A stretch of DNA of 64,000 nt from Gammaproteobacteria bacterium (lineage in GTDB: Bacteria > Pseudomonadota > Gammaproteobacteria > CAKMZV01), in NCBI GenBank assembly GCA_965277625.1, contig OZ255827.1, positions 1,544,550 through 1,608,549 on the forward strand. The letters are read 5' to 3'. The position numbers and the translations under genes are program-made. Shown in pieces: positions 9,157 through 29,035 of the stretch. Position 1 is the stretch's first letter; each line of letters begins with the position of its first letter. The notes under the pieces are model-generated. The model ran no database searches, was not told where the DNA came from, and saw nothing but the letters and a program-made list of their open reading frames with translations.

Positions 9157-9753
9157 AGACTAATGTCCTGAAAGCTATTTGGGTCTTTAATGAGTACGTT
9201 CAAGCGTATTTATATAGGCGCGCTATTGTACTTCAATGACCTTGATTTCACATCACATCTACCCTGAGGTCGCAATTCTTTTTGGACCATCGCTAAACGT
9301 TTAGTCGTACTAAGACACTTTGTAACTTTGATCACTTATACCGCCCATATCATATGGATGTCGTACAGTTTTAAACATCTCCATTTTTTTAATGAGCGAT
9401 TTGATAGACATTTCGTTAAACTTCTTAGTTTTATACATTTATTTTTATAATTTCAATTTTTAGATCTAGCCATATGGTTCCCATCGCGTTTAATTTTAAT
9501 TTGCTACACATTTGTAAAGCAATCTATTTTCAATGAAGCGATTTAAGCAGACTATAGAACGATCGAAAAACGACCATGAGGCTATGCCATTAACTAGAAC
9601 AACATAGAACTTTGGGATTTATCAGGACCAATGACCCTAAAACAGGTTCTGTATGACAATCAAAAGCAACAAAGTTTATAATACCGCGCTTATAAATCAA
9701 AGTTATCGCAATATTCCAATTTATCACCACTTAAAAATTATTATTCTAATCAG

Positions 9754-10617
9754 ATGAAAGGCATTATTCTCGCAGGAGGCACTGGATCTCGACTATTCCC
9801 ATTGACAATGGGCGTCTCTAAACACCTATTTCCCATTTACGACAAGCCCATGATTTATTACCCCTTGTCCGTCCTTATGCTGGCTGATATAAGGGAGATT
9901 TTGATCATCACCACACCAGAAGATCAGGCAAATTATAAACGCCTCCTCGGCAATGGTAAACAATGGGGGATTAGCATTGAATATTGTATTCAAACAAAAC
10001 CCAAGGGATTGGCAGAAGCTTTTATTTTGGGAAAATCTTTTATTGGTCAGGATTCAGTATGTCTCGTATTAGGTGATAATGTTTTCTGGGGTCATACCTT
10101 TTCTGCAAAATTACAAAAAGCCAGAGAAATTAAGGACGGTGCTGTCATTTTTGGCTATCAAGTCATTGACCCAGAAAGATTTGGCGTGGTAGAATTGGAT
10201 CGAGATGGATATGCAATCTCATTAGCAGAAAAGCCCAAAAAACCAAAATCAAATTTAGCCGTCACGGGTCTGTATTTTTATGATAATGATGTTATTAATA
10301 TCGCCCACGACATTCAACCCTCTGATCGTGGTGAACTCGAGATTACGTCAATTAATGAACACTATTTGAATCACAAGAAATTACACGTTGAAATCTTAAG
10401 TAGAGGGTTTGCTTGGTTAGATACTGGGACGCATTCCAGTTTATTAGATGCTTCAAAGTTTGTTGAAACCATAGAGAAACAGCAAGGTTATAAAATCGCT
10501 TGCCTTGAGGAAATTGCTTGGTTAAAGAAATGGATAAATACCAATCAATTACAACAGGAGGCCTTAAAATATACCAATAATAACTATGGTCAATATCTGC
10601 TCCGACTCATCAATTAA
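9754..10617 (+). CDS. rmlA: Glucose-1-phosphate thymidylyltransferase
   Basis: 287 aa. MKGIILAGGTGSRLFPLT...KQLLPIYDKPMIYY signature of RmlA. Confidence 0.9.
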   Translation: MKGIILAGGTGSRLFPLTMGVSKHLFPIYDKPMIYYPLSVLMLADIREILIITTPEDQANYKRLLGNGKQWGISIEYCIQTKPKGLAEAFILGKSFIGQDSVCLVLGDNVFWGHTFSAKLQKAREIKDGAVIFGYQVIDPERFGVVELDRDGYAISLAEKPKKPKSNLAVTGLYFYDNDVINIAHDIQPSDRGELEITSINEHYLNHKKLHVEILSRGFAWLDTGTHSSLLDASKFVETIEKQQGYKIACLEEIAWLKKWINTNQLQQEALKYTNNNYGQYLLRLIN

Positions 10618-10787
10618 ATAAGGCTACTAAGTCTAAAATACCGTATGGCTAAAACGATTTCAAACACAAGGGCTGGAGACGATATTGGTAAAGCGAACAC
10701 CTATTCTACTAGTATGTGGTGGATACATCATTCATGCTGTTGATCATTTTTTAAATTATGACAACAATCAAACTCTCGATATAGAAA

Positions 10788-11936
10788 ATGAATAAAGCAA
10801 TAAAATTTAATCAGCCCTATATAACTGGCAAAGAACTTGAATTAATAAACGATGTTTTTGCTCGAAATCAGTTCAGTGGTAATGGTTACTACACTCAAGC
10901 ATGCCAACAAAAAATCAAAGAAATTTTGGACGTTGAAAATGTGCTGTTAACCGACAGTTGCACGTCAGCTTTAGAAATATCAGCCCTGTTGCTTAGAAAA
11001 TGGCATGTAAAACAACAAATAATTTTGCCATCCTATACCTTTTCATCAACGGCTGCTGCGTTTGCACGTTGTGGTTTTGAAATAGTTTTTGCCGAGATTG
11101 AACCGCATACCATGATGATTGACATTGAGGATGTTAAACATAAGATTACCCCACATACTGCTGCCATTGTCATAGTGCACTACGCTGGATTTTGTGCTGA
11201 TTCAGCCAAATATAGAAAATTGTGCGATGATAACGGACTCTATTTGATTGAAGATGCTGCCCAAGCTTTTGGAAGTCGTAAAAATGACGAACCCATAGGC
11301 CGTGATGGTGATCTAAGCTGTTATTCATTCCACGAAACCAAAAATCTACACGCAGGATTGGCTGGTGCATTGGTGATCAATAATCATTCTTTTTTTGATA
11401 GAGCTTGTCATATGTGGGAAAGAGGCACAAACCGACAAGAAGTTTTAAAAGGGTTGATCGATAAATATTCTTGGGTCGAAATTGGCGGCAGTTTTTATCC
11501 AACTGAACTTCAAGCAGCTTTTTTATTGGCCCAACTGGATCATTTTCTTGAAAATTTATTGCAAAGAAAAAATCTATTTATGGGTTACTACAACTATTTT
11601 TGCAGCAAAAATTATTCAGATGTAAATTTTCCTCTTATACAAGATGATTTTCAAACAAACTACCATGCCTTTTGGCTAACTTTTAGGTCTGAGGCAGAAT
11701 GCGATTATGTTCGGAAGACCCTGTCTAAACAAAGCATATCTGCCTATATCGGTTATGTGCCACTCCATTCATCCCAAGTGGGGTTACAAATGAATTATCA
11801 ACCTGACGATCTTCCTTTAACGGAAGCATTTGCCAAAAAAATTCTAAGGCTTCCCATGCATAACAATATGAGTCAGAAAGATGTTGACAGCATTTGTACG
11901 AATATCAATCAAGCTTTAACACAATACCGAAAATAA
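10788..11936 (+). CDS. DegT/DnrJ/EryC1/StrS family sugar aminotransferase (WecE/ArnB-like, dTDP-4-keto-6-deoxyhexose aminotransferase)
   Basis: 382 aa. Collinear with E. coli WecE (SCTSALE, PSYTFxST, FSFHETKN, WxExG). Confidence 0.85.
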   Translation: MNKAIKFNQPYITGKELELINDVFARNQFSGNGYYTQACQQKIKEILDVENVLLTDSCTSALEISALLLRKWHVKQQIILPSYTFSSTAAAFARCGFEIVFAEIEPHTMMIDIEDVKHKITPHTAAIVIVHYAGFCADSAKYRKLCDDNGLYLIEDAAQAFGSRKNDEPIGRDGDLSCYSFHETKNLHAGLAGALVINNHSFFDRACHMWERGTNRQEVLKGLIDKYSWVEIGGSFYPTELQAAFLLAQLDHFLENLLQRKNLFMGYYNYFCSKNYSDVNFPLIQDDFQTNYHAFWLTFRSEAECDYVRKTLSKQSISAYIGYVPLHSSQVGLQMNYQPDDLPLTEAFAKKILRLPMHNNMSQKDVDSICTNINQALTQYRK

Positions 11937-11945
11937 AGAGATAAC

Positions 11946-12719
11946 ATGACCTCTTTTAACACAGCAAAATACGAAGTACAACAACTGCTCAACAAGATCT
12001 CTAAGACGGTTGAAGATGATCTACGACTTGAAGCCATTGTTGAAAGTATTAAAGACTGGTCTGAAATTGAATCCATTGCTTCAATTGAGCAGTGGTTTAT
12101 TGAACAGCAGGAACAGTGTTCAATGGTTTTAGAAGACATTCCAATAACGGAATGTAGAGGATGGTCGCTGAACCCAAAAAGTGGATTCGTTGAGCACGAC
12201 AGTGGTGAATTTTTCTATGTCCAAGGCATACGAATAAAACACTCCAAAAGTCGTGAAGTGACAGAGGGATGGGATCAGCCTATGTTAACTCAAGTGGGTT
12301 ATAACGGTGGCATTGTCGGCGTCATCAGAACCAAAATAAACGAAATACCTTATTACCTTGTGCAAGCCAAAGCCGAACCAGGCAATCCAGATAAAGTTCA
12401 AATCAGCCCTGCCCTGCAAGCAACATTCAGTAATATCAAAAAATCTCATGGGGGCAGTAATCCGCTTTTTCATGAATATTTTGAATTCCCTGATCAAAAT
12501 AATGCCACAGTATTATTCAACCAGTGGATGTCTGAAGATGGTGGACGATTACATTTAAAATGTAACAGAGGGATGATCGTCGAAATACTTTCTGAGGCAA
12601 TAACAAGTTTAGAAATACCGCCTTCTTTTAAATGGCTTTCATTGTTCCAAATCAAACACCTCATAAAAAATAGCAGCTGGGTGAATCCTCACGTTAGAGG
12701 CATCATTTCTCACCTATAA
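11946..12719 (+). CDS. Single-domain NDP-hexose 2,3-dehydratase-like protein (putative)
   Basis: 257 aa. FFYVQGIRIKH...GWDQPMLTQ...GGIVGVI...YYLVQAKAEPGN resembles one repeat of the EvaA/TylX3 Hexose_dehydrat domain. Recognition is from memory of the family motif, so it is tentative. Confidence 0.4.
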   Translation: MTSFNTAKYEVQQLLNKISKTVEDDLRLEAIVESIKDWSEIESIASIEQWFIEQQEQCSMVLEDIPITECRGWSLNPKSGFVEHDSGEFFYVQGIRIKHSKSREVTEGWDQPMLTQVGYNGGIVGVIRTKINEIPYYLVQAKAEPGNPDKVQISPALQATFSNIKKSHGGSNPLFHEYFEFPDQNNATVLFNQWMSEDGGRLHLKCNRGMIVEILSEAITSLEIPPSFKWLSLFQIKHLIKNSSWVNPHVRGIISHL

Positions 12720-12731
12720 AGATACTCCATC

Positions 12732-13682
12732 ATGAATTTGGCAGTTTGGTCTATAGGCAGTCACGCGAGAAAAAATATTCTCCCTGCTGTCATAAAATCT
12801 AAAAAAGTCAATCTCAAAGGTTTATTGACTCGACACACAAAACTCGGTGAAGACCTCTGTGCGGATTATCAGTGTGTTCAATACTCGTCAGCCGAAGCTT
12901 TACTACAATCACCAGACATTGATATCATTCATATTTGTAGCCCAAACGGGATTCATTTTGAACAAGCAAAAGCTTGTATTGAGCATGGTAAACATATCAT
13001 TGTCGAAAAAAGAGCCTTTTCTACATTGGAACAGTCCTATGAAATTGCAAATCTTGCCAAAGCGCAAAAGGTTTTAGTATTTGAAGCATTTATGTATCAA
13101 TATCATGCCCAATTTAAGCAATTAAAAAAATTGCTGGCAGAAAAAAAATATGGTGCCATAAGATCCATTTACGCATCTTTTGGTTTTCCATACTTACCAA
13201 AAAATAGTGTTCGACATTCAAAGAAACTCGATGGTGGTGCCTTAGGTGATGCAGGTGTTTATCCCATTTCAGCAATCTTGGCTTTAATGGGAAATGATGT
13301 GGATTTGGTTTATTCGACGATGAATTTTGAAAAAGATTTTGAAGTTGATACCTCTGGCTTAGCGGTGTTTAAAAACAAAGGCCAAAAAGGCATTTGCCAA
13401 TGGATATTTGGAGGCAGTTATAAAAACGCCATTGAAATTTGGTGTGAAAATGGCCATATTTATGTCGATCGAGCCTTTTCCAAAACCGAACAATTCCCTA
13501 CAAGCCTCTCAATTCATCACAATGGCGAAATCATTGAAACCATAAACTCTGGAGAAGACAATCATTTTACAAACATGTACGATCATTGCTACGATTTAAT
13601 TAATGAAGAACAATATGAATCATCCATTGAATCGCTGATTTTACAATCTGAAATCGTAGAAAAAATTCGCTTAAAACAATGA
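12732..13682 (+). CDS. Gfo/Idh/MocA family oxidoreductase (candidate NDP-sugar ketoreductase, KijD10-like)
   Basis: 316 aa. N-terminal Rossmann fold and IHICSPNGIHFEQAKACIEHGKHIIVEK consensus (EKP-like motif). Confidence 0.75.
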   Translation: MNLAVWSIGSHARKNILPAVIKSKKVNLKGLLTRHTKLGEDLCADYQCVQYSSAEALLQSPDIDIIHICSPNGIHFEQAKACIEHGKHIIVEKRAFSTLEQSYEIANLAKAQKVLVFEAFMYQYHAQFKQLKKLLAEKKYGAIRSIYASFGFPYLPKNSVRHSKKLDGGALGDAGVYPISAILALMGNDVDLVYSTMNFEKDFEVDTSGLAVFKNKGQKGICQWIFGGSYKNAIEIWCENGHIYVDRAFSKTEQFPTSLSIHHNGEIIETINSGEDNHFTNMYDHCYDLINEEQYESSIESLILQSEIVEKIRLKQ

Positions 13683-14626
13683 TCAGTTTTGTTATTCCCG
13701 TTTATTTCACGTCTCCTTCAGAGTCTGGGTTGACAAAGTTGATCGACAGAATCACTGCGATTTGTGAACAAATAGATTCGTCTTTTGAAATCATTTTGGT
13801 GGACGATGCTTGCCCATCAAATTCTTGGGATCATATTCAGAAACTGTGTGTCAAAATGCCTGCCATAGTCAAAGGCATCAAACACAGTCGAAATTTTGGT
13901 CAACAAAATGCCATTACTACTGGACTTTCCATGAGTAGTGGTGAGTGGATGGTCGTTATGGATTGTGATTTTCAAGATGACCCTGAAGCCATCTTCGATC
14001 TCTGGGCAAAAAAAAATGAAGGCTTTGATTATGTTGTTATCTCACGTTTTAATCGTCAAGATTCATTTTTAAAAAAATCAACCTCTTATCTCTTTTGGCG
14101 ATTATTCTCATTTTTAACCAATACAACGCTAGATGGTTCTGTTGCAAACTATGGCATCTATAACCGTAAAGTCATCAATGCTTATTTATCTATCAATGAT
14201 CAAATAAAATCTTTTCCAGCCCACGTTAATTGGTTAGGATTCAATAGGGCAACCATAGAATATCAGCACCAACCGAGATTGAGCGGCAAATCATCTTATA
14301 GCATTGCCAAAATGTTCATATTAGCAACCAATACCATACTGAATTTTTCTGACAGACCCTTGTGGCTAATTGCACAAACAGGGCTTTGGATCTCTGCACT
14401 CAGCATATTGACCGCTTTGTGTTTTTTTATAGGCGCTTTATTGGACATATTTGTGGTTCAAGGCTGGGCGGGTATTATTGTGTCCATTTGGTTATTCTCA
14501 GGCTTAATCATTTTTTTACTTGGGATAATAGGACTCTACGTTTCCAAAACATTTGAGCAAACCAAAAACCGCCCCACAGCCATTATTTCAGAAAAAATTG
14601 GCTTTGAACGAGAAGAACTAAAATGA
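13679..14626 (+). CDS. GT2 polyprenyl-phosphate glycosyltransferase (ArnC/GtrB-like)
   Basis: 315 aa. ISFVIPVYF...ILVDDAC...NFGQQNA...VVMDCDFQDDP with two C-terminal transmembrane helices, the ArnC/GtrB architecture. Confidence 0.8.
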   Translation: MISFVIPVYFTSPSESGLTKLIDRITAICEQIDSSFEIILVDDACPSNSWDHIQKLCVKMPAIVKGIKHSRNFGQQNAITTGLSMSSGEWMVVMDCDFQDDPEAIFDLWAKKNEGFDYVVISRFNRQDSFLKKSTSYLFWRLFSFLTNTTLDGSVANYGIYNRKVINAYLSINDQIKSFPAHVNWLGFNRATIEYQHQPRLSGKSSYSIAKMFILATNTILNFSDRPLWLIAQTGLWISALSILTALCFFIGALLDIFVVQGWAGIIVSIWLFSGLIIFLLGIIGLYVSKTFEQTKNRPTAIISEKIGFEREELK

Positions 14627-14991
14627 ATTATTTATATATTTTAGGTTGTATAATCTTCACCGTTTATGGGCAGTTAATCATTAAACATAGACTGGCATCT
14701 CATCCACCCTTACCTGGTGATTTCTCTGAAAAGATGATTGCAGTCATCAAGTTGCTTTTTGACCCCTTTATTGCCTCAGGTCTATTTGCTGCATTCATAG
14801 CTGCGCTTCTGTGGATCGTTGCCCTCTCAAAATTTGAATTGAGCTTTGCTTATCCCATGATGAGTTTCTCTTTCGTGTTAGTCAGCATATTCTCGTTCTT
14901 ACTATTCAATGAGGTAATGAGCGTGTATAAAATTTTAGGATTAATACTAATCATGTCAGGTATTTTTATTCTGAATTTGCATGCTAAATGA
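14623..14991 (+). CDS. ArnE/ArnF-like (EamA/SMR-type) small 4-TM flippase subunit
   Basis: 122 aa. Alignable by eye to E. coli ArnF (IFTVYGQLIIKHRLASHPP vs IASVAQLSLGFAASHLPP; AYPMMSFSFVLVSI...IMSGIFIL). Confidence 0.6.
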   Translation: MNYLYILGCIIFTVYGQLIIKHRLASHPPLPGDFSEKMIAVIKLLFDPFIASGLFAAFIAALLWIVALSKFELSFAYPMMSFSFVLVSIFSFLLFNEVMSVYKILGLILIMSGIFILNLHAK

Positions 14992-16385
14992 GCATAACTT
15001 TTCCTTCTTTAACCGTTATTGATTGGGTACTAACTGCCCTCATATTAGCCATTATTTGTTGTGCCATTTATCTTTTTGGCAACTATTGCACCCACTGCAT
15101 TGATCAGGCTTGGACTGCATCTTTTGGTCTCAATTTTATTCAAAACCAAACCTATGTTGAAGACTTAACCTTTGCAAATTCTGCAGGAGATTTTCGTTTT
15201 TTTGGGATGACACTTGCATATGTCAATGGCAAGTTAGCATCAACATTTAGTACCCATCCCTACTTTTTTGCTTTAATTTCAACTTGTTTTACACTGCTTT
15301 CCAACGTTTTTTGGTATTTTGGTTTTAAACGATTATTTAATCGAAACATCGCTTTATTTACAACCTTATGCCTGTTTATTGCCACCACAAGTTTTGGTGT
15401 TAGCCAAATTAATCGTCCTGAAGCGCTTTTGTTTCTTCTCTGCTCAGTCAGCTTCTGTTGTGCCAGTTATCGCTATTATTTCATTGCGGCGATTTTAGCA
15501 GGCATTTGTATTGAAATTCATCCCATGGGGTTCATCTGCTTCATTTATTTGACTGGCGTATTACTCATTTCTGATGATCGTAAGCATATTAAACATTGGT
15601 TGGCTATAGGGATTGCTGGTTTGATTGGACTGGGGTATTTTCTGCTCCTTCATCATCCCTATTTAGAACTTTATCAAACTATTTTAAGTCAAGCACGAGG
15701 TGCAAATTTTATTCAAAATAATTTCATTTTGGCTTATTTTTTTGATGTCAGATATTTTAAAAATGTCCCCGAAGCCTTTCTTTTAATTGCGATGATTGTT
15801 GTCACACTAATCAAAAAAAATGCTTTCTCCAATACAGCTGTACGTCTTAGCCTATTATGGTTAATAGCCATTTTGTTGTTTTCCTTATTGATTGGCAGAG
15901 GCAATACGCAGTATGGTATTTATTTATTACCACCGCTATTCCTACTCTCTGTCGCACAACTTCATCAATGGAAGACGTTCAAACCGATCATTGTGCTAAT
16001 CGTTGTTTATTACTTACTGCAATATATGGCTTTAATTTATATTAATGGCCATTTTAGAATGCATCAATACCATAATCAAATCAATCAACACCTCCCAAAA
16101 AAGTCAGAGGGGACCATTTATTTAGGGCATTCTAATCACTGGTTTACATTTAATAACGACCCCGACCGCCAGTTTTACACCGTCCAAGAGAATGATTTAA
16201 AATTTCTTAAAAATCAAAGATTTATCTGGATTCGCGACAACATTTGGGAACCAATTAACGCCCAACCGACAACTGAATTTCAAAAGTTGGCTAAAAAATG
16301 TCCAATGAAATTGCTAAGCCATTTCGATTACGGTCGGCATTCAGTACGATTTGAGCAATATGATTGCCGTAAAATTGCACCTTAA
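14988..16385 (+). CDS. Polytopic membrane protein, putative GT-C glycosyltransferase (ArnT/Gtr-type-like)
   Basis: 465 aa with ~11 predicted TM helices, acidic residues in the first extracytoplasmic loop (YVEDL) and a ~90-aa soluble C-terminal tail. Gene position matches arnC-arnE/F-arnT or gtrB-gtrA-gtr(type) logic. Confidence 0.4.
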   Translation: MSITFPSLTVIDWVLTALILAIICCAIYLFGNYCTHCIDQAWTASFGLNFIQNQTYVEDLTFANSAGDFRFFGMTLAYVNGKLASTFSTHPYFFALISTCFTLLSNVFWYFGFKRLFNRNIALFTTLCLFIATTSFGVSQINRPEALLFLLCSVSFCCASYRYYFIAAILAGICIEIHPMGFICFIYLTGVLLISDDRKHIKHWLAIGIAGLIGLGYFLLLHHPYLELYQTILSQARGANFIQNNFILAYFFDVRYFKNVPEAFLLIAMIVVTLIKKNAFSNTAVRLSLLWLIAILLFSLLIGRGNTQYGIYLLPPLFLLSVAQLHQWKTFKPIIVLIVVYYLLQYMALIYINGHFRMHQYHNQINQHLPKKSEGTIYLGHSNHWFTFNNDPDRQFYTVQENDLKFLKNQRFIWIRDNIWEPINAQPTTEFQKLAKKCPMKLLSHFDYGRHSVRFEQYDCRKIAP

Positions 16386-16514
16386 ATTACCCTGCTGTCT
16401 TGAAAATTAAATAAAAAATAATCCACAACTGTGGGAAATTTTATAGAAAACGTAAATCTTATTGTAAAAAACCGCCTAAATAAATCATCCATAAACAATC
16501 TATTGAGAAAATAT

Positions 16515-17540
16515 ATGAATACCACTGACGCCGCTTTAACATCTAATACTCCGCCTTTACTAAACAAAATTTCATCAGTGATTGGGTTAATCGTGCCAAT
16601 CGCTAGCTTTTTTCTATTGTCAAAAACCTTAAGTCCCCCTGCATTATGGGTGATGATGGGTGTATTACTCGGATTGCCCAGTGGTTTGAGCTTATTCATG
16701 CCCCGTTTTAATAAATGGGCGCAACTCTCAAGTACCATTGCCCTCATTGCTATTGTTGTCATTGCATCTGCAGACTTATGGCATGCATTATTGAATCAAG
16801 TACAAGCCGATCTATCGTTTCAACTATTGAGTCTCATATTGGCTTTGCTCATTGCTGCTGTATTGCAATTAACGCAGTTGCTGTATAGTGTGACCGAAGA
16901 TGAAATGAAGGTTCACGATCTAACCGATAAGGCTTTAAGTGGTCCGTCATTGGTCATAAGTTTCAGCATTGGTCTGATTCTGACTTCTTTGATGCTATCT
17001 TGGATGCAGACGACGGAAATCGCGCTCATGTCCAGTATTTCTCCAAAATTTTTAACCCGCGGCGTTATCCCACCACTGACCCTCACCTTGTTTTTCTGGG
17101 GCGCCTTATTGTTATTCGGTAAATGGCTCAAAATGCTGATTCAAGTCAAGCATAGTGATAGTGCCCGTTCTCACTTCAACACAGCGCATCAAAAAACTGA
17201 CACTTCAGTTAAAAAACAAGATGAATTCTTTCAACTAATCTGGCAACAATTTGAGGCTTCTTACACCCTTCCTCGATACATCAATTGGGCCATTCCCATA
17301 CTTGGGTTTATTGGCACAGTTTTGGGCATTTCTCTTGCAACAGAGGGTTTGAGTGCCATATTGGCCAATAATGATTCAGAGTTTAATCAGTTGCTCGGTT
17401 CTGCTCTTTCCCCGCTCGGTATCGCCTTTGATACCACTTTAATTGCACTCTCATTATCAATTGCCTTGGCGTTTTCTCAAACCATACTTTATCGCTGGGA
17501 AGAAAAACAATTGCTCATTTTGGAAGAAAAACTTAAATAA
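16515..17540 (+). CDS. MotA/TolQ/ExbB-family proton channel protein
   Basis: C-terminal ILGFIGTVLGI...LGIAFDTTLIALSLSIA matches the ExbB/TolQ TM2-TM3 signature, with extra N-terminal TM helices. ATG at 16515 preferred over the GTG at 16431, which lies inside a promoter-like AT-rich palindrome. Confidence 0.6.
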   Translation: MNTTDAALTSNTPPLLNKISSVIGLIVPIASFFLLSKTLSPPALWVMMGVLLGLPSGLSLFMPRFNKWAQLSSTIALIAIVVIASADLWHALLNQVQADLSFQLLSLILALLIAAVLQLTQLLYSVTEDEMKVHDLTDKALSGPSLVISFSIGLILTSLMLSWMQTTEIALMSSISPKFLTRGVIPPLTLTLFFWGALLLFGKWLKMLIQVKHSDSARSHFNTAHQKTDTSVKKQDEFFQLIWQQFEASYTLPRYINWAIPILGFIGTVLGISLATEGLSAILANNDSEFNQLLGSALSPLGIAFDTTLIALSLSIALAFSQTILYRWEEKQLLILEEKLK

Positions 17541-17543
17541 TCC

Positions 17544-18095
17544 ATGCCCAAAAAGATCCATCGTAAAGGGAAAAGCCTGTTCAATAGTGGCGATATCGAT
17601 GCGCCTATGGTTGAGGTGTTCGGTGGTGCCTTGGCATTGTTGATCATCATTTTTATTTTAATCAATTTGATTGTGACGCAAGACATCCGCGCCATGTTGG
17701 ACCGTTCAACCGAAGACGCCAAATTTAAAGTGTCTTGGCAAAATGGCACCGAAGGTTTGGTGGTTATTTCCTACCCTGACAAGCTGCGCATCATTGAAAC
17801 CAATGAGAGTATCCCCCGCTCTAAAATATGCACACCCAATAACCCTTTCCTGCGCTACGTCGAGAACATCTATAACAATTCGCAGAATCAACAACTGATT
17901 TTTGCCATTTTAGACAATGGGGTGGAAACCATGGCCATTGCTCGCAATTGTATGCGCGCCCGCTGGGCTCAACGGGTCATCAATATTGGTTGGATTATTG
18001 CCAATCAAGACTTGCTGTCCACCGTTCGATTGCAGGATTTACCTGCGCGCATAAAGAAATCGTTAAACTTTAATAAACCACCAACAACGCAATGA
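17544..18095 (+). CDS. ExbD/TolR/MotB-like biopolymer transport protein
   Basis: 183 aa. Short cytoplasmic N-terminus, a single TM (FGGALALLIIIFILINLIV, like ExbD VMLVLLIIFMV), then a periplasmic domain. Confidence 0.5.
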   Translation: MPKKIHRKGKSLFNSGDIDAPMVEVFGGALALLIIIFILINLIVTQDIRAMLDRSTEDAKFKVSWQNGTEGLVVISYPDKLRIIETNESIPRSKICTPNNPFLRYVENIYNNSQNQQLIFAILDNGVETMAIARNCMRARWAQRVINIGWIIANQDLLSTVRLQDLPARIKKSLNFNKPPTTQ

Positions 18096-19882
18096 GTGAG
18101 CGTGTACAGCAACAGAATCAATCTAAATCATTTGGGTTGTTGGGCCAAAGTGGTGTGGCATTGGCTGATATTTTGGCAAACAGCGTTGCAGTGATTCTGA
18201 TCTTAATTGCCGTAACGCTCACCGTTCAACAAAAAAAAGCGCAAGATGAATTAGAACAAAATGCGGACATCACCACTATTTTAGCGAGACAGTTAGCAAC
18301 CAGCGTTGTGTTCAACGATTTGCCAACCAGCCCCCCTGCTCGATTACACGACTATCACTCATGCGAGATTCCGCATGACTGCAATCCCTATTTGTATCCG
18401 ATCATTGAAATGCACGATGGCTATATCCGTATTTTTAATAACAATACCAAAATTTATCGTAATGAACTGCTACGAAAAGAGAATGCCTTTGACTTATACA
18501 TCAAAAATTTACGTCCTGAAGAAATATTAAATTTGCGTTTAGACGTCTATTCTGTGAGTGAATACTACCTGACATTGGGCATTTTGAAAGAACATAATGC
18601 CAGTCCCAGACATTGGCACTACCTTGGTGAAAGTGTGCCACCATTGAAAAATCAAATACTTAATGAAGAACGCATTGCCGGACATCAACAAGACCAAAGT
18701 TCAGAAGGTTTGGATGAGGGTCAAAGCAACAGTGACAGTGAGGGCAGCAATGATTCAGAAAGTTCAAGCCGCTCAAACCAACAAAGCCAGGGTCAAACGC
18801 CTTCACAAATGCCCGAAGGAACCGAATTGGCCGATTCTGAATCTCGGCAGTCTCTGCAGTATGATAGCCTTCTGCCGCCAGCCGATGGCGGGGCATCCAA
18901 TGAAGTCTCTGAAAATGCCCAAGAACAACCTGGCGGACCAACTGAATCCGAATCGTCTCAAAGCAACAAAACTCCCACGACTTTATTTGAAGCCTTAACG
19001 GGTATGATGGCAGAATCTCAAGGCCTTACCCCTCCTGAGCAAAGTGGTCAAGGTTCATCGGGCAAACGATCGATGCGTGTTCACGTCCCCAATGCTGGAA
19101 AATCAACTGGAAACGAAGGCAAATCCTCCGACAGTGTTAATTTACCTGCCGATGAATATCACCGTGTTGTGATTGCCTACATTCTGACAATGCTTGAACA
19201 AGCACACATTCAAAAAACTTTGGCACTCCCTCAAGCGAGAGAATGGCTGGCGCAGCTCGCTCAAAGCCCAGAGAGCATCCAACAACTGCCCTTGTATCCG
19301 CTGATTGATTCATTAGCGATGATCTTTGATCATGGGCATGAAGCCCGATCTTCAACATTGCAAAAAACCGTTATTGACGCAAGCTTGAGAGATAATCAAC
19401 TGCAAATTCCCTATAACGTTGCCTACCCTGCACCTGTTATAAAAACCTATAACACCCCTGTTTGGTTAGACAAACTGACTCAAGCCCAAAACGTTCAACC
19501 AGCGTTGTTAATGCGACTGTATCCCAGTCTATTTAAAGGCGAAGTTTTAGAATTTCCCGAAGGTTATACGGTTATTGTCCATCCTGATGAAGCTGCTAGA
19601 ACCATTGCTCAATGGCGACCCATTGCTGTACTCGATGCCCAATTAAATGACATCAGTTTAGGATTTGTTTATGCCTCAATAGCCAATGAGCAACTGGTGA
19701 TTCACGCAGGCGAAAACCAATTGTTATTGAATAAATTTCCCATTTCAGATCCACAAATCAGTGCCAAAGACAACACCGAAATTCTCACGCCCATACTATG
19801 GCTGTTTGGATTATTTACCCTCTTGGTATTACTGTCAAGAATGCGTATTCGAACTCGACGAGAATCCCTCAAATCCATTTAG
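18092..19882 (+). CDS. ExbD/TolR-like protein with long acidic low-complexity extension and C-terminal TM anchor
   Basis: 596 aa. N-terminal ExbD-like TM (ADILANSVAVILILIAVTL), an ExbD-like domain, then ~200 aa of S/E/Q/D-rich low-complexity sequence, a C-terminal globular part and a terminal hydrophobic helix. Confidence 0.4.
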   Translation: MSERVQQQNQSKSFGLLGQSGVALADILANSVAVILILIAVTLTVQQKKAQDELEQNADITTILARQLATSVVFNDLPTSPPARLHDYHSCEIPHDCNPYLYPIIEMHDGYIRIFNNNTKIYRNELLRKENAFDLYIKNLRPEEILNLRLDVYSVSEYYLTLGILKEHNASPRHWHYLGESVPPLKNQILNEERIAGHQQDQSSEGLDEGQSNSDSEGSNDSESSSRSNQQSQGQTPSQMPEGTELADSESRQSLQYDSLLPPADGGASNEVSENAQEQPGGPTESESSQSNKTPTTLFEALTGMMAESQGLTPPEQSGQGSSGKRSMRVHVPNAGKSTGNEGKSSDSVNLPADEYHRVVIAYILTMLEQAHIQKTLALPQAREWLAQLAQSPESIQQLPLYPLIDSLAMIFDHGHEARSSTLQKTVIDASLRDNQLQIPYNVAYPAPVIKTYNTPVWLDKLTQAQNVQPALLMRLYPSLFKGEVLEFPEGYTVIVHPDEAARTIAQWRPIAVLDAQLNDISLGFVYASIANEQLVIHAGENQLLLNKFPISDPQISAKDNTEILTPILWLFGLFTLLVLLSRMRIRTRRESLKSI

Positions 19883-19884
19883 CC

Positions 19885-21447
19885 ATGAGCCAAAATCGCG
19901 TCATTGCCCTCATTCTGTTTATTGTCATTACTTTGGCATTAGTCTGGTGGCGTTGGGTTTATTTGTCCCCGCAGCAACTCGATTTAGTCACCGTTGTTGA
20001 AACAGACCAACCGGCTGTCGTCAGCCCCATGGATGAGGTTCTCAAAAAGCATATCAACTTGCTGACCCATACCCAGACTTTATTGCAGCAATTTAAACGC
20101 CCCAGTGAATCCATCACTTTAAAACCGCTGTGGATTGACCGTTGTGAGGTTACGCAAAGAGACTTTCGCCAATTTGCCACTTGGCGAGCGGCTCAGGTCA
20201 TTCCGCCAAATGCCCATCCAGCAACCCCCCAGCGATGGGCGTATAAAAGTCAATCAGAAAATCATCGCATACTCGGACAACTGAGCATGCCTGCAGGTGG
20301 ATTAAGTTATTTAGATGGTTGGGCGTATTGCCATGCTGCTGGCGGTCGCTTACCAAGCAGTCAGGAGTTTGAAGCAATCAGTGCAGGCAAGGAACAACGT
20401 TTATATCCTTGGGGCAATACACTGGTTGACGATGCTTGGCCCTATAAGGACCCTTCTTTGAACGTTGCCCAAGTGTGCGGTTCGCATCCAGCAACTGATA
20501 CACCCGAAGGCATCCATGATTTAGGCAACAATGTTTTAGAATGGACGACAAACAACGACCAAGCTGTGTTGATGGGTGGCAATGCCTACCATCGCCCTTT
20601 GGCATTAAATGCCATCAACCTTATCAGGCGTTCAGCACCTGTGGATTTTCGTTCGCAATACACAGGTTTTCGTTGCGTCTATGACCGAACCCAACAAGCC
20701 AATTTAGATTCGCTGCCTTTGCCGTGGGGGAGCCAGCCAAAAATTGCCAGTATAGATGCTTCAACATTGACAATCGGTCCACCCAAATCTGCTAAAATTC
20801 CCGCATTATTATTGCATTTAAAGGATGATCAACTCAAATCGATCCAAAACTTTTCCATCATCCCGACACGCTTAAATTTAAAAGTGATGCGTTATGAAGT
20901 CACGGTGGCATCGTACACTAAATTCTTACGCGACCCATTGGTGCGATTCGGTTTTTATAATCACCCACAACAACCCGTCAACATGGCCCATGATCCCGTC
21001 CGATGGGACACACAGCAACAAAATCCAAGTCATCCTGTGACCAACATCACGTGGTGGAATGCCTGGTCATTTGCCAAATGGGTGGGCGGGCGACTGCCAA
21101 CAGCCCCTGAATGGACGGCGCTTGCGGGCGCACATTCCACGCGTTTCCCCTATGGAAACCAATACCAACCCCTAGCCTCTGTGGACAGAAATCGCATAGA
21201 CAGCCAATGGCAATCCTTAGAAGTCATCGCCTCAAATGATGACAGCAAACACGCAATCAAAGGTTTTGCTGGTAATGTTGCCGAATGGACCAGCACATCG
21301 CTATTGCGCGGCAATGCTTTTACCTTGGTCATCAAGGGTGGCAGTTTCTTCATGCCTGAAGAAGGCGGAGAAATCGGTCAAAGTGGCGAAGCACCGCCAA
21401 ATTATAAAAATGCAGACTTGGGTTTCCGGGTGGTTTTTCCGAATTAG
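19885..21447 (+). CDS. Membrane-anchored tandem FGE-sulfatase (SUMF1/EgtB/GldK-like) domain protein
   Basis: Starts 3 nt after the upstream stop. N-terminal TM, then two FGE-like repeats (GGRLPSSQEFE...YPWGN...GNNVLEWT...GFRCVYD and GGRLPTAPEWT...GNVAEWT...GFRVVF). No paired catalytic cysteines seen near the C-terminus of either repeat. Confidence 0.7.
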   Translation: MSQNRVIALILFIVITLALVWWRWVYLSPQQLDLVTVVETDQPAVVSPMDEVLKKHINLLTHTQTLLQQFKRPSESITLKPLWIDRCEVTQRDFRQFATWRAAQVIPPNAHPATPQRWAYKSQSENHRILGQLSMPAGGLSYLDGWAYCHAAGGRLPSSQEFEAISAGKEQRLYPWGNTLVDDAWPYKDPSLNVAQVCGSHPATDTPEGIHDLGNNVLEWTTNNDQAVLMGGNAYHRPLALNAINLIRRSAPVDFRSQYTGFRCVYDRTQQANLDSLPLPWGSQPKIASIDASTLTIGPPKSAKIPALLLHLKDDQLKSIQNFSIIPTRLNLKVMRYEVTVASYTKFLRDPLVRFGFYNHPQQPVNMAHDPVRWDTQQQNPSHPVTNITWWNAWSFAKWVGGRLPTAPEWTALAGAHSTRFPYGNQYQPLASVDRNRIDSQWQSLEVIASNDDSKHAIKGFAGNVAEWTSTSLLRGNAFTLVIKGGSFFMPEEGGEIGQSGEAPPNYKNADLGFRVVFPN

Positions 21448-25062: not shown

Positions 25063-25341
25063 GTGAATATTGAACAAGCTAAAAAAATCATTATCCAAGC
25101 CATTTCAGAGACACTCCAAGGTAAGGCTGAAGTGACTGAAGAAATGCAGCTGATTGGTGGTGAATCCTTACTTGACTCTATGAAGTTAGTCGAAGTATGT
25201 CTTTTATTGGAAGACTTGGCTGACGACCATGGATTTGAGTTTGATTGGACTTCAGAAGCTGCCATGTCAAAATCTCGCAGTATGTTCCGCAGCGTTGCCA
25301 CGCTCGCTGAAGAATTCGCTCATCAATCAGTGTCATCATGA
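25063..25341 (+). CDS. Acyl carrier protein-like
   Basis: 92 aa. GGESLLDSMKLVE phosphopantetheine-site-like motif. GTG start after AGGAAA. Confidence 0.6.
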   Translation: MNIEQAKKIIIQAISETLQGKAEVTEEMQLIGGESLLDSMKLVEVCLLLEDLADDHGFEFDWTSEAAMSKSRSMFRSVATLAEEFAHQSVSS

Positions 25342-26015
25342 TCATTGTGACTGGCGCCAGTCGAGGGCTGGGTAAGGCAATTTCTGAACGCCTAGTTGAT
25401 AATGGTGAGAAAGTTATTGGTATAGCGAGATCGATTGAAGATGTTGAATTTGAAGCCGTACAATGTGATGTCAGTTGCTACGTATCAGTAAAGAATGCTG
25501 TGCGTAAGGTAAAGCAGATGAATACGCCAGTAAAGGCATTCATAAATGCGGCCGGTGTAGCCTCAATGAATTTGGCTTTGACCACTGATGAATCAACCGT
25601 TCAGAAACTCATTCAAACAAACCTGGTTGGAACAATCTATTGCTGTCAATTATTTGCCCCACTAATGTTGCGACAAAAACAGGGATGTTTTATTAATTTT
25701 TCCACGATTGCTGTTGCGCTTGCCCTAAAAGGTGAATCTGTTTACGCGGCATCTAAAGCAGGGGTTGAAGTCTTTTCGCGCACCTTTGCACGAGAAGTGG
25801 CAGATTTTAATGTTCGTGTAAATTGTATCGCGCCAGGGCCGATCCGAACTGACTTACTGAGGGGTATTACAGACGCACAGATTGATAAAATCACATCTCA
25901 ACAAGTTATGCCTAAACAATTCCAAAAGTCAGATGTGTGCGACCTTGTGGAACTATTACTTGATGAGAAAGCATCTTCATTGAGTGGGCAGGTGCTCAAT
26001 GTTGGTGGCGTTTAA
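25338..26015 (+). CDS. SDR family oxidoreductase (FabG-like 3-oxoacyl-ACP reductase candidate)
   Basis: 225 aa. TGASRGLG, NAAG and YAASK catalytic motifs. Confidence 0.8.
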   Translation: MIIVTGASRGLGKAISERLVDNGEKVIGIARSIEDVEFEAVQCDVSCYVSVKNAVRKVKQMNTPVKAFINAAGVASMNLALTTDESTVQKLIQTNLVGTIYCCQLFAPLMLRQKQGCFINFSTIAVALALKGESVYAASKAGVEVFSRTFAREVADFNVRVNCIAPGPIRTDLLRGITDAQIDKITSQQVMPKQFQKSDVCDLVELLLDEKASSLSGQVLNVGGV

Positions 26016-27310: not shown

Positions 27311-27312
27311 AT

Positions 27313-28269: not shown

Positions 28270-28492
28270 AGTAAGTTTTAAGGATTTTTCAAGTAGTTTT
28301 GCAGAGGAGCTTAACATCGATCGTGCGCTTGATCCTACAACCCAATTAAAGGACTTAACTGAATTCGACAGTGCTGGTAAAATTTATATAAGCCTCATCA
28401 TTGAAGAGCTTTTTGGCTTCCAGATAGAGCATAAAATACTCAATGAGTGCGAGTCTTTAAAAGATCTATATGACTACTGCTGCAAGCAATAA
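28262..28492 (+). CDS. Acyl carrier protein-like (second)
   Basis: 76 aa. LTEFDSAGKIYISLIIEELF with a DS motif in helix II. Confidence 0.5.
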   Translation: MSKVSFKDFSSSFAEELNIDRALDPTTQLKDLTEFDSAGKIYISLIIEELFGFQIEHKILNECESLKDLYDYCCKQ

Positions 28493-28504
28493 TATGGTGC
28501 GTAT

Positions 28505-29035
28505 ATGATTCAAGCATCCCTGAGAAGTATTGCGCTTGATGATATACAACTTTTGCGCTTTTGGAGAAATCTTGATCATGTAAGGCGTCAAATGATTTTG
28601 ACGAGATACATTGACAGAAATGAGCAACGTCATTGGTTTGAGACATCAAATGAAAACTTGGTGCGCTATTTCATTTACTCACTCGATACGCATGATGTGG
28701 GATGTGCCAATCTTCTCAATATAAATCAAACCGAGAAATCATTTGAAGGTGGTATTTTTTGTGGCGATACCACTTACCTAAATCACTGGGTCAATATTTG
28801 GGCTTGTATTAAGATTTACGACTACGGCTTTTTTGAGCTTGGTTTGGAGAAATCATTCGCTAAAGTATTGAAGGATAATTTACCGGCATTAAAATTAAAT
28901 AAGTCTTTGGGCTATCAATTTATCAAAGATATTGATCAAAACATCGGCTGGTATGTATTGACCCGAGATGATTACATTCAATCAACAGTGAAAATAAAAC
29001 GATACTTACGCGAATTCGCAAAACAAACTTTGTGA
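28505..29035 (+). CDS. GNAT family N-acyltransferase (PseH-like)
   Basis: 176 aa. N-terminal LRFWRNLDHVRRQM resembles PseH FKWRNHPDINQFM, within a GNAT-like fold pattern. Confidence 0.5.
   Translation: MIQASLRSIALDDIQLLRFWRNLDHVRRQMILTRYIDRNEQRHWFETSNENLVRYFIYSLDTHDVGCANLLNINQTEKSFEGGIFCGDTTYLNHWVNIWACIKIYDYGFFELGLEKSFAKVLKDNLPALKLNKSLGYQFIKDIDQNIGWYVLTRDDYIQSTVKIKRYLREFAKQTL

Follow-up and report, generated by a model that had tools for sequence, protein, structure and literature searches.

A candidate extracytoplasmic glycosylation operon with a predicted dTDP-aminosugar supply line

Seven genes at positions 9754-16385 of the 64-kb stretch of DNA analysed here (the window), which comes from an uncultured gammaproteobacterium, probably constitute an operon for three-component extracytoplasmic glycosylation, in which a dTDP pathway would supply the lipid-linked donor. 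The nucleotide sugar is predicted to be a dTDP-4-amino-2,4,6-trideoxyhexose. The logic of loading, flipping and transferring a sugar on undecaprenyl phosphate (Und-P) is familiar and is the same as in Arn and Gtr systems; the apparent novelty lies in the sugar supply line and the transferase family. The block's proteins fail every Arn equivalog cut-off, and in contrast to Arn systems, which carry UDP-Ara4N genes, the block has none and carries dTDP-aminosugar genes instead. A preliminary description of this DNA had called such an arrangement an undescribed variant, and we found no published description of a dTDP-fed Und-P system of this type, of the block's sugar supply line or of its 465-aa GT-C family. 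The observation in that description is confirmed, and its interpretation is largely supported.

In the route we propose, RmlA would make dTDP-glucose, and an unlinked dTDP-glucose 4,6-dehydratase encoded outside the window would provide dTDP-4-keto-6-deoxyglucose. A single-domain EvaA-like 2,3-dehydratase would then remove the C-2 hydroxyl, a KijD10-like Gfo/Idh/MocA enzyme would reduce the C-3 ketone, and a divergent WecE-like transaminase would aminate C-4, giving dTDP-4-amino-2,4,6-trideoxyhexose of unspecified stereochemistry. At the cytoplasmic face, a GtrB/ArnC-type GT2 would load this sugar onto Und-P. An ArnF-like protein with four transmembrane (TM) helices, probably a homodimer, would flip the Und-P-sugar to the periplasmic face, where the GT-C protein (candidate catalytic base D39) would pass the sugar to an acceptor, perhaps a component of LPS or a protein of the surface. 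All of the chemical steps are inferred, as are the exact sugar, the acceptor and the direction in which the flippase works.

Block layout and sugar-forming enzymes

The block had been described as seven co-directional, tightly spaced or overlapping genes, and all seven ORFs are indeed found at the coordinates given below, on the + strand and mostly overlapping. In block order they are separated by gaps of 170, 9 and 12 bp and then by three 4-bp overlaps. The first gap sets rmlA off from the other six genes, which the short gaps and overlaps join closely. A search for an internal terminator within the block gave no convincing one. The best promoter match, a sigma-70-like ATGACA-18-TATAAT (11/12) at 9653-9682 (+ strand), lies about 70 bp ahead of rmlA and is no more than a weakly supported candidate for the promoter of the operon, because the 25 promoter-like sites in the region are no excess over the 28.8 expected after shuffling. 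The block had also been placed between lepA and guaB; this holds on the lepA side, but four more genes (16431-21447) intervene between the GT-C gene and guaB.

All gene assignments survived tests against profiles, solved structures or predicted folds, including the two weakest. The rmlA product (9754-10617, 287 aa), a glucose-1-phosphate thymidylyltransferase, scores above the TIGR01207 equivalog cut-off (469 bits vs 361) and matches PF00483 with 253 bits. The next gene (10788-11936, 382 aa) encodes a divergent WecE-like PLP aminotransferase of the DegT family (PF01041, 237 bits) that passes the NF008687 cut-off (417 bits vs 375) and falls under that of TIGR02379 (325 vs 435). Its best PDB matches are WecE structures 6blg and 4piw (1e-67), with ArnB and QdtB at about 1e-25 to 1e-30, and it shares 45-58% identity with the DegT genes adjoining the short dehydratase in most other loci. 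From these relationships, it is predicted to aminate C-4 of dTDP-4-keto-2,6-dideoxyhexose.

The NDP-hexose 2,3-dehydratase (11946-12719, 257 aa) is half the length of characterised enzymes of this kind. It carries a single copy of PF03559 (Hexose_dehydrat; 190 bits), a profile that matches EvaA twice (150 bits over residues 36-246 and 92 bits over 262-458), and it appears to be the counterpart of EvaA's N-terminal half, which is Nudix-like and catalytic. The EvaA catalytic residues E139 and E190 (PMC8987622) align with E144 and E197 of the window protein, both invariant in the single-domain family; this family has at least 1,540 members. Its AF2 model (pLDDT 82) has EvaA as top Foldseek match (E = 1.2e-13, TMq 0.68). 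The Gfo/Idh/MocA oxidoreductase (12732-13682, 316 aa) has the family's N- and C-terminal domains (PF01408, PF22725), and its closest solved relative is the dTDP-sugar 3-ketoreductase KijD10 (3rbv, 1.6e-27), with a moderate lead over other Gfo-family matches (100 vs 82 bits). It is predicted to act as a C-3 ketoreductase on the 3,4-diketo dehydratase product.

The window contains neither rmlB nor any other extended SDR gene, and the same is true of the 10 kb around the block in a close relative; the pathway would therefore depend on an unlinked gene. The block also lacks arnA and arnD, as the preliminary description had noted. ArnC takes an N-formylated sugar only (PMC12690121). Many related loci do carry genes for WbqC, a formyltransferase fragment, an ATP-grasp protein or an acyltransferase; the window has none of these to draw an unfavourable transamination forward.

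The predicted undecaprenyl-phosphate route

The GT2 (13679-14626, 315 aa; Glycos_transf_2) combines a GT-A domain with C-terminal TM helices and matches GtrB sll0501 (5ekp, 1.6e-39) and ArnC (9bhc, 1.8e-33) over its full length. Its best NCBIfam match is PgfS, at 162 bits against a cut-off of 500, and the ArnC match is likewise below cut-off. The protein belongs to a clade marked by the signature DCD + D-[AS]-[CS]-P-x-x-[SP]-W, common to cassette-linked GT2s, with which it scores 213-251 bits; against GT2s found elsewhere in the company of the window's GT-C family, it reaches only 69-128 bits. It is predicted to form Und-P-(4-amino-2,4,6-trideoxyhexose), although its sequence does not reveal its nucleotide specificity.

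Downstream, a small EamA/SMR-type membrane protein (14623-14991, 122 aa) had been called ArnF-like, and profile matches bear this out: it exceeds the EamA cut-off (PF00892, 36 bits vs 28) and covers positions 4-118 of the 120 in the ArnF profile NF002816, with 52 bits against a cut-off of 99. Homologues next to the cassette in Phenylobacterium, Alteromonadaceae and Enterovibrio share 50-52% identity with it, and its predicted role is that of the Und-P-sugar flippase.

The last gene (14988-16385, 465 aa) belongs to a family without a Pfam model and reaches PMT_2 only below threshold (20 bits vs 26). Structure comparison nevertheless found the GT-C fold that had been suspected, in a model of moderate confidence (pLDDT 75.7, built from 12 sequences); its top matches include Pmt4 and Pmt2, and ArnT and ALG enzymes score equally well. 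No Wzx- or Wzy-type assignment emerged from the profile and fold checks. The protein is predicted to move the sugar from Und-P to a periplasmic acceptor; a role of the block in cationic-peptide resistance is speculative.

Recurrence of the sugar genes beside the lipid-linked route

The DegT, short dehydratase and Gfo genes recur together as a cassette in about 25-30 loci spread over Alpha- and Gammaproteobacteria, Gemmatimonadota, Firmicutes and Poseidoniales archaea, and in about 30 loci of various phyla the short dehydratase is directly followed by a Gfo homologue. True RmlA and RmlB genes (45-77% identical to RmlB) adjoin the cassette in most loci, with RmlB missing from several. Most cassette loci have no polyprenyl-phosphate (Pren-P) GT2 or ArnF-like gene, so the cassette sugar evidently also serves ordinary cytoplasmic glycosyltransferases. 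In further loci, the cassette is accompanied by a same-clade GT2, a flippase and a GT-C from a different family. In an Enterovibrio locus (L012), Gfo, GT2 and ArnF follow one another just as they do in the window; a Syntrophomonadaceae locus (L013) combines the GT2 and a pair of EamA genes with the cassette and a PF10131 protein; in L029, a YfhO protein accompanies the GT2, RmlA, RmlB and the cassette; and L021 holds the cassette and the GT2 together with GtrA and a formyltransferase fragment. By sequence relationship, the GT2 clade thus tracks the sugar cassette in four unrelated lineages, and not the GT-C family.

The ArnF-like clade points the same way. It comprises at least 493 metagenomic loci, 24 of which have at least 3 kb on both sides. 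Within 3 kb of ArnF, 22 of these 24 carry a DegT gene, 20 a GT2 gene (18 at 38% identity or more) and 18 both. DegT is a bona fide WecE in all three classified loci (TIGR02379, 623-660 bits, cut-off 435), and L079 also has RmlA and a true RmlB (TIGR01181, 504 bits vs 365). Where ArnF-clade loci hold nucleotide-activation genes, these are true RmlA/RmlB; in 80 such metagenomic loci, no SDR of the ArnA type was hit by the RmlB query, and the three with Pfam annotation have no formyltransferase. The dehydratase-reductase pair is rare here (2/80 loci; 1/24 of those well flanked), and the 2-deoxy step would therefore be an add-on outside the core. With both the GT2 and ArnF clades travelling with dTDP-4-aminosugar genes, comparison supports the idea, raised in the preliminary description, of an Und-P route fed by adjacent dTDP-aminosugar genes, a coupling that we infer from gene neighbourhood.

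Alternative readings and conservation of the block

The block might instead hold two independent modules. Its sugar genes would feed a Leloir glycosyltransferase in the cytoplasm, one encoded elsewhere and working on O-antigen or capsule, and the GT2-ArnF-GT-C trio would draw on a common UDP-sugar (Glc, GlcNAc or GalNAc) in the manner of Gtr, CsbB/YfhO and Francisella/Bordetella systems. All of the biochemically characterised Pren-P GT2s named in PMC12690121, PMC7389260 and PMC11127046 use UDP- or GDP-sugar donors, and the 170-bp gap after rmlA and the many cassette loci lacking a Pren-P GT2 or ArnF-like gene fit such a split. We consider it unlikely, however, given the 4-bp overlap of the reductase and GT2 genes, the lack within the block of any glycosyltransferase besides GT2 and GT-C, a GT2 clade that follows the cassette across four lineages, and the nearness of DegT to the ArnF clade in the metagenomic loci. 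Equally, the architecture could be right and the sugar another. DegT would then work at C-3, like EvaB or DnmJ, with Gfo reducing C-4, to give a 3-amino-2,3,6-trideoxyhexose; or Gfo would oxidise C-4 of dTDP-glucose and later re-reduce C-3, keeping the 6-OH, to give a 4-amino-2,4-dideoxyhexose independently of RmlB. The vancosamine and daunosamine pathways aminate 2,3-dehydratase products at C-3, Gfo/Idh/MocA enzymes can act as dehydrogenases, the KijD10 margin is modest, and rmlB is absent from the window and several cassette loci. Such a sugar still seems improbable to us: DegT is far nearer the C-4 enzyme WecE (231 bits) than either of two enzymes acting at C-3, QdtB (106) and the 2oga transaminase (82), and it passes NF008687; most cassette loci adjoin a true RmlB; and the best solved relative of Gfo is a C-3 ketoreductase.

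The same donor pathway could also serve O-glycosylation of a secreted or membrane protein, as by PMT or PgfS/PgfM, in place of Arn-type lipid A modification, a possibility we take seriously while leaning against it. The PgfS match of the GT2 recalls a streptococcal protein-glycosylation system, but its score lies far under the cut-off; Pmt4 and Pmt2 rank high among GT-C fold matches, but no better than ArnT and ALG enzymes. In other genomes, the GT-C family forms tandem paralogues next to surface proteins of Glug, Cadherin-like or Calx-beta type (one has 6,221 aa), a neighbourhood that is circumstantial. A gene 1.7 kb downstream of the block encodes a 596-aa protein, part of which is a long, disordered and Ser-rich stretch, yet no feature of the window links it to the block. 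Finally, the block could be an inactive remnant in a reduced genome of 2.1 Mb, its pathway incomplete for lack of rmlB; a GT-C paralogue is also variable between strains. This we judge very improbable. The window and a close relative both keep all seven ORFs intact, and several have close copies in sibling assemblies. Against the 95%-identical relative, dN/dS is 0.06-0.22 for six of the seven genes (0.06 for rmlA; the Gfo gene was left out for its gapped alignment), comparable to neighbouring genes. The block genes are under purifying selection and functional. Linked rml genes are likewise missing from many metagenomic ArnF/GT2/WecE loci, which makes supply from unlinked genes normal.

The block is AT-richer than its surroundings, as had been judged by eye: GC is 0.371 against 0.432 +/- 0.029 in the other 49 window ORFs of at least 150 aa (Mann-Whitney p = 1.6e-6), and GC3 is 0.342 against 0.421 (p = 8e-6). 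The gap upstream of rmlA (9157-9753, 597 bp) has a GC of 0.33. The suggested origin of the block as an acquired island is only partly supported: it agrees with the lower GC, but at least four sibling assemblies share the block, with nucleotide identity of about 95%, and it has no tRNA, flanking repeats or mobility genes. Within the lepA-rmlA gap, 293 bp at 9239-9531 stand in place of 2,089 bp in the 95%-identical relative (blastn against L002), and tblastn found no remnant there of P0002, the extra 469-aa GT-C paralogue (43% identical to the window GT-C) that the relative's segment carries. This second paralogue would imply two acceptor sites in the relative. The GT-C paralogue is strain-variable, present in some strains and absent from others.

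Layout, composition and inheritance of the block

The glycosylation block comprises seven plus-strand genes at 9754-16385, whose positions agree exactly with those in the preliminary description. rmlA (9754-10617; TIGR01207, 469 bits against a cut-off of 361) is followed by a WecE-like DegT aminotransferase (10788-11936, assigned by profile and PDB comparison), a 257-aa 2,3-dehydratase (11946-12719; a single copy of PF03559, 190 bits), a Gfo/Idh/MocA oxidoreductase (12732-13682, assigned by profile), a GT2 glycosyltransferase (13679-14626; PF00535, 77 bits, with GtrB and ArnC alignments), a 122-aa EamA-type small protein (14623-14991; EamA 36 bits, cut-off 28; best named match ArnF) and a 465-aa GT-C protein (14988-16385), which matches PMT_2 only below threshold (20 bits vs 26). 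Profile searches confirmed the RmlA, DegT, 2,3-dehydratase, Gfo/Idh/MocA, GT2 and EamA assignments first proposed from the sequence alone. The genes are spaced by 170, 9 and 12 bp and then joined by three successive 4-bp overlaps. A promoter and terminator scan of the block region gave site counts not above those of shuffled sequence and is therefore neutral on co-transcription.

The block is AT-richer than its neighbours, as first described: its GC content is 0.371, compared to 0.432 for the other 49 ORFs of the window (p = 1.6e-6), which suggests a foreign origin. The proposal of an acquired island is only partly supported. The whole window contains no tRNA, no mobility gene marks the block, an Rfam scan of the block and its edges returned a single AsrC match far below threshold, and a repeat scan of the same region returned short chance repeats only, so that the hallmarks of integration are absent. 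The block had also been placed between lepA and guaB, but four further genes separate it from guaB. Four co-directional genes lie 3' of the block at 16431-21447, where GC content returns to the window average, and are kept in the relative. They encode a 369-aa protein with a weak MotA/ExbB match and proteins of 183, 596 and 549 aa, the last with FGE-sulfatase domains; in the 596-aa protein, a long disordered central part rich in Ser, Gln and Glu separates hydrophobic stretches that lie close to the two termini. Farther on, 3' of guaA (25338-29035), genes for a short-chain dehydrogenase, an AMP-binding enzyme, a KAS III-like protein and a low-GC (0.36) GNAT acetyltransferase may form a small acyl-modification cluster, for which no link to the block was established.

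Comparison with related assemblies shows a block that is fixed and functional in its lineage, with a number of transferases that varies between strains. The source contig, from an uncultured gammaproteobacterium, spans 2.106 Mb, and the same proteins occur in at least four sibling assemblies. In the GTDB representative (OZ255843.1, 2.06 Mb), which is ~95% identical across the whole region, the same block sits in the same place, with an eighth gene between lepA and rmlA encoding a 469-aa paralogue (P0002) that is 43% identical to the GT-C of the window. This is a presence/absence polymorphism: 293 unrelated bp at 9239-9531 of the window lie opposite 9470-11558 of the relative's region (L002), and neither tblastn nor blastn found a remnant of P0002 in the 9157-9753 gap. 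As the P0002 cluster has one member, just one sibling assembly is known to carry the paralogue. Between window and relative, six of the block's seven genes have dN/dS values of 0.06-0.22, near those of neighbouring genes, and a decaying pseudo-operon was rejected on this basis; for the Gfo gene, alignment gaps made the ratio incomputable.

Predicted nucleotide-sugar supply by the transaminase, dehydratase and reductase cassette

The short dehydratase belongs to a strongly conserved family of ~255-aa proteins with at least 1,540 matches at 52-64% identity. Its profile scores 150 bits against the N-terminal half of EvaA and 92 bits against the C-terminal half. The N-terminal half of EvaA holds active pocket A, and E139 and E190 are essential (PMC8987622); the invariant E144 and E197 of the short dehydratase align with these two residues. 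An AF2 model (pLDDT 82) returned EvaA as the first structural match (E = 1.2e-13), followed by Nudix hydrolases. Characterised 2,3-dehydratases have a duplicated Nudix-like two-domain architecture (~470 aa in actinomycetes), whereas the block's enzyme has one PF03559 copy and a single Nudix-like domain. No published work was found on short 2,3-dehydratases of envelope loci.

The flanking enzymes were compared with solved structures and curated profiles. Among PDB entries, the Gfo/Idh/MocA protein matches the dTDP-sugar C-3 ketoreductase KijD10 best (1.6e-27, 100 bits), ahead of uncharacterised Gfo proteins at 82 bits, and its conserved place directly 3' of the dehydratase supports a C-3 ketoreductase role. 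The transaminase matches WecE at 1e-67, whereas its matches to ArnB and to QdtB, which acts at C-3, lie at ~1e-25 to 1e-30. It scores above the NF008687 cut-off (417 vs 375 bits) and below that of TIGR02379 (325 vs 435), and its sequence places it in a putative divergent WecE-like subfamily that is found together with 2-deoxygenation genes.

No rmlB or other extended SDR was found in the 64-kb window, where tblastn with an approximate RmlB query returned nothing better than E = 1.3, and rmlB is likewise absent within the 10-kb flanks of the block in the relative. In a genome scan with the dehydratase family, a genuine RmlB (45-77% identical) and RmlA were usually encoded within 10 kb of the cassette, which indicates that the cassette's normal substrate is the RmlB product. 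In the lineage of the window, rmlB is predicted to be unlinked to the block. By textbook order, 2,3-dehydration would precede 3-ketoreduction and 4-transamination, which predicts dTDP-4-amino-2,4,6-trideoxyhexose as the product of the block, each of these chemical steps being predicted. A literature search on 4-amino-2,4,6-trideoxy sugars returned only AAT, an unrelated 2-acetamido sugar.

The same order of steps is known from actinomycetes, where EvaA, TylX3 or SpnO acts with KijD10, TylC1 or SpnN and forosamine-type 4-amination. The context differs, however. The actinomycete enzymes serve antibiotic biosynthesis and their product goes to an aglycone, whereas short dehydratases occur in envelope glycosylation loci of Gram-negatives, Firmicutes and archaea, and the product of the block would go to a lipid carrier.

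Related genes also occur in other arrangements. Four loci of Candidatus Poseidoniales, marine group II archaea (L016, L018, L023, L028), encode the short dehydratase and Gfo in all four cases and DegT in three, with RmlA and RmlB; the archaeal cassette is 47-53% identical to bacterial proteins, which indicates exchange across domains. In Bradyrhizobium and other Alphaproteobacteria (L044-L058), a more distant short-dehydratase subfamily (~30% identity) is flanked by rmlA and rmlB. Its DegT is a different one (23-26% identity), a Gfo gene is usually missing, and the genes probably serve another sugar pathway.

The predicted lipid-carrier genes and their probable link to the sugar genes

The GT2 aligns over its full length, including the TM region, with its best solved relative, the GtrB homologue sll0501 (residues 2-310, 1.6e-39; 28% identity), and with ArnC (residues 2-307, 1.8e-33). 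It carries a DCD motif and is predicted to be a polyprenyl-phosphate glycosyltransferase. The 122-aa candidate flippase, which overlaps each of its neighbours by 4 bp, aligns with the ArnF model across 115 of 120 positions and matches the EamA, TMEM234 and SMR models, not the GtrA model PF04138.

An exact database look-up of the 465-aa protein gave no match, and its context was taken from a 93% homologue. A word-indexed search found 11 family members, compared to 407 representative clusters in an exhaustive profile search. Among 44 sampled members, Pfam matches were limited to scattered sub-threshold hits to GT87, PMT_2, PMT and EpsG. Residues D39, W42, R143, E176, H178 and H222 show little or no variation. 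In solved GT-C enzymes the catalytic Asp lies just after TM1 (PMC11127046), as D39 does in this family. The 465-aa protein combines a GT-C fold with a conserved acidic residue after TM1. The preliminary description had considered that the membrane proteins might prove to be a Wzx or an O-antigen polymerase, or that this protein might lack a GT-C fold; neither proved to be the case, and no profile or fold supports a Wzx, Wzy or WaaL identity for any of them. Elsewhere, the 465-aa family occurs as 2-5 tandem paralogues with a GT2 and GtrA, sometimes fused (L059 1-8243; L060 6752-8563; L061 1-2891), beside Glug, Cadherin-like or Calx-beta domain proteins, one of 6,221 aa. Such neighbours hint at a possible role of the family in surface-protein glycosylation.

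We asked whether the sugar half and the membrane half of the block are coupled. The key proposal of the preliminary description, that an Und-P route is fed by the adjacent dTDP-sugar genes, is supported by three comparative lines: a gene combination that recurs, the clade of the GT2, and a metagenome scan with the ArnF-like clade.

The DegT-dehydratase-Gfo cassette is conserved in ~25-30 loci of Alpha- and Gammaproteobacteria, Gemmatimonadota, Firmicutes and Poseidoniales archaea, and its combination with lipid-carrier genes recurs in other lineages, where the individual parts vary. In Enterovibrio (L012), Gfo, GT2 and ArnF follow one another as they do in the window. A Syntrophomonadaceae locus (L013) combines the cassette with a GT2, two EamA genes and an 870-aa PF10131 membrane protein, and in Vulcanimicrobiota (L029) a YfhO-family protein accompanies a GT2, RmlA, RmlB and the dehydratase-Gfo pair; in CsbB/GtcA/YfhO systems, YfhO serves as the GT-C (PMC7389260). 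In Hyphomonadaceae (L021) a formyltransferase fragment adjoins the GT2, and GtrA and a 591-aa polytopic protein accompany the cassette, while in Phenylobacterium (L007) and Alteromonadaceae (L011) an ArnF-like gene lies directly 5' of DegT. Across 54 cassette loci, the 465-aa family is absent beyond the lineage of the window.

The GT2 sequences follow the sugar genes. The window GT2 matches cassette-linked GT2s at 213-251 bits (36-42% identity) and shares with them the signature DCD / D-[AS]-[CS]-P-x-x-[SP]-W, compared to just 69-128 bits for GT2s that lie beside the same 465-aa GT-C family elsewhere. This supports a separate clade that appears to track the sugar genes, not the GT-C. Reading nucleotide specificity from GT2 motifs was set aside, as the clade signature is interpretable only with structure.

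The metagenome scan with the ArnF-like clade returned at least 493 loci. Neighbours were counted in the 24 loci flanked by 3 kb or more on each side: within 3 kb of the ArnF-like gene, DegT was present in 22, GT2 in 20 and both in 18. In 18 of the 24, the nearby GT2 was at least 38% identical to that of the window. The usual order is polytopic protein, GT2, WbqC, DegT and ArnF-like gene, where the Pfam-less polytopic protein has 554-608 aa, 9-11 TM segments and SDAAIANILAEE after TM1. The DegT proteins of three classified loci are bona fide WecE (TIGR02379, 623-660 bits, cut-off 435; NF008687 passed too), and L079 also encodes RmlA and a true RmlB (TIGR01181, 504 bits vs 365). The RmlB query picked up no ArnA-type SDR among 80 metagenomic loci. 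From the neighbour counts and the WecE and RmlB identities we infer that the GT2 and flippase clades of the window as a rule occur with dTDP-4-amino-6-deoxyhexose enzymes. To this module the dehydratase-reductase pair is a rare addition, present in two of the 80 loci and one of the 24 well-flanked ones.

The metagenomic module itself looks like an Und-P-4-amino-4,6-dideoxyhexose system. Examples among L062-L141 lie at L122 5543-10363, L089 4814-10363 and L079 5579-14256, and acyltransferases are sometimes present. On the unrelated 849-kb metagenomic contig of L122 (10534-13256), the module lies near lepA with just prs between; lepA is also a neighbour in the window, probably by coincidence.

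Relation to known three-component systems, amine tailoring and acceptor

Three-component systems decorate finished envelope polymers outside the cytoplasm, and they drive serotype conversion, phage resistance and, via Ara4N, polymyxin resistance. The characterised nucleotide-fed systems in the literature that we examined use UDP-sugars. Functionally, the block is a predicted Arn/Gtr-type three-component system that belongs to neither the Arn pathway nor Gtr.

Membership of the Arn pathway was rejected because every cut-off was missed (ArnC 140 vs 529, ArnF 52 vs 99, ArnB 129 vs 631, and 20 vs 26 for PMT_2, which we take to cover ArnT-type enzymes) and because ArnA and ArnD are absent from the block. 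The last point had been noted at the outset. The seven block proteins contain no formyltransferase, SDR or deacetylase domain, and the window contains no extended SDR. Arn uses a UDP nucleotide, a pentose and an ArnE/ArnF pair, whereas the block has dTDP enzymes (RmlA and WecE-like), a predicted 6-deoxy and probably 2,6-dideoxy hexose, and a single small-protein gene. Gtr and the Gram-positive CsbB/GtcA/YfhO and GtlA/GtlB systems, like the block, encode a Pren-P GT2, a small flippase and a GT-C together, and the use of one donor by paralogous GT-Cs recalls serotype-specific Gtr enzymes. However, the block lacks GtrA (PF04138) and a prophage context; its flippase is of the EamA/ArnF type and its GT-C comes from a different, Pfam-less family. 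Moreover, Gtr-type systems draw on housekeeping UDP-Glc, UDP-GlcNAc or UDP-Gal, in contrast to the built-in nucleotide-sugar pathway of the block.

Other systems resemble the block in part. The pentofuranose systems of Citrobacter youngae O1/O2 (GT136) have a dedicated donor pathway, an SMR-type flippase and an unclassified GT-C (PMC11127046). With these and mycobacterial DPA-dependent arabinosylation the block shares a dedicated non-standard donor supply, an SMR-type flippase and a previously unclassified GT-C, and the pentofuranose enzymes have a proposed catalytic Asp just after TM1, like D39. The donors differ, being made from PRPP in those systems and, in the block, a predicted dTDP-activated amino-deoxyhexose moved by a GT2. 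The metagenomic module (L079, L083, L089, L096, L097, L122 and others) shares with the block the GT2 clade (38-48% identical) and the ArnF-like clade (47-62% identical), and it has a WecE-type dTDP-4-keto-6-deoxyglucose transaminase and, in some loci, RmlA and RmlB. It carries WbqC, and another polytopic protein without a Pfam model stands where the block has the 465-aa family; without the dehydratase-reductase pair its predicted product is a 4-amino-4,6-dideoxyhexose. For corynebacterial RptA, a dTDP-derived polyprenyl-P-rhamnose donor has reportedly been proposed. RptA is a GT-C that adds rhamnose to arabinogalactan (PMC3123699).

A dTDP-aminosugar donor for such a route had been called an undescribed variant, and a literature search found no published dTDP-fed three-component system of this type. 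The three-step logic of the block is known from Arn and Gtr; what would be new is its putative dTDP-aminosugar supply. The block rests on two uncharacterised protein families and is linked to a very common, unstudied metagenomic module. If the operon works as inferred, the donor range of three-component systems would grow to dTDP-activated 4-amino-deoxyhexoses, including a 2-deoxy aminosugar otherwise tied to actinomycete antibiotics. There would then be a testable function for the 1,540 or more single-domain 2,3-dehydratases, for the ~400-cluster Pfam-less GT-C family and for the second Pfam-less polytopic family, as well as new parts for glycoengineering, and the metagenomic module, with its 493 or more loci, may be a general cationic surface modification. 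A broader reading, which we consider unlikely, is a widespread counterpart of Ara4N: Und-P-4-amino-6-deoxyhexoses made through dTDP-sugars, flipped by ArnF-like proteins and transferred by several GT-C families lacking curated Pfam models, here also 2-deoxygenated by a single-domain EvaA-like dehydratase, so that lipid A or the LPS core would bear a 4-amino-2,4,6-trideoxyhexose that is cationic and highly acid-labile. If this were true, surface charge would be lowered as with Ara4N, and the mild-acid steps of standard LPS work-ups would have destroyed the sugar.

The acceptor could be lipid A or core, as for Arn, O-antigen, as for Gtr, or protein. The protein option draws on the resemblance of the GT2 to PgfS, on the surface proteins that lie beside the GT-C family in other genomes, and on the Ser-rich 596-aa protein downstream.

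ArnC requires an N-formylated substrate (PMC12690121). Related loci carry tailoring genes (WbqC, formyltransferase, ATP-grasp or acyltransferase) and the window carries none, which leaves two options, transfer of the free amine or the action of an unlinked enzyme. A search for functional literature on WbqC found none. Tailoring genes differ by lineage (L012 1173-4345, L013 2307-3458, L011 4606-8275, L007 2420-6416) and across these four loci include ATP-grasp ligases, a class I/II aminotransferase, AMP-binding/LuxE/LuxC, WbqC, a methyltransferase, a PhyH dioxygenase and an LbH acyltransferase. This variety suggests varied N-acylation of the 4-amino group. In the Hyphomonadaceae locus (L021 12718-14165), the Formyl_trans_C fragment overlaps the start of the cassette-linked GT2 in another reading frame, and the GT2 ORF, read stop to stop, extends ~110 residues 5' of the GT2 domain. 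This could be a formyltransferase-GT2 fusion frameshifted in the MAG, echoing the logic of the ArnA formyltransferase and ArnC.
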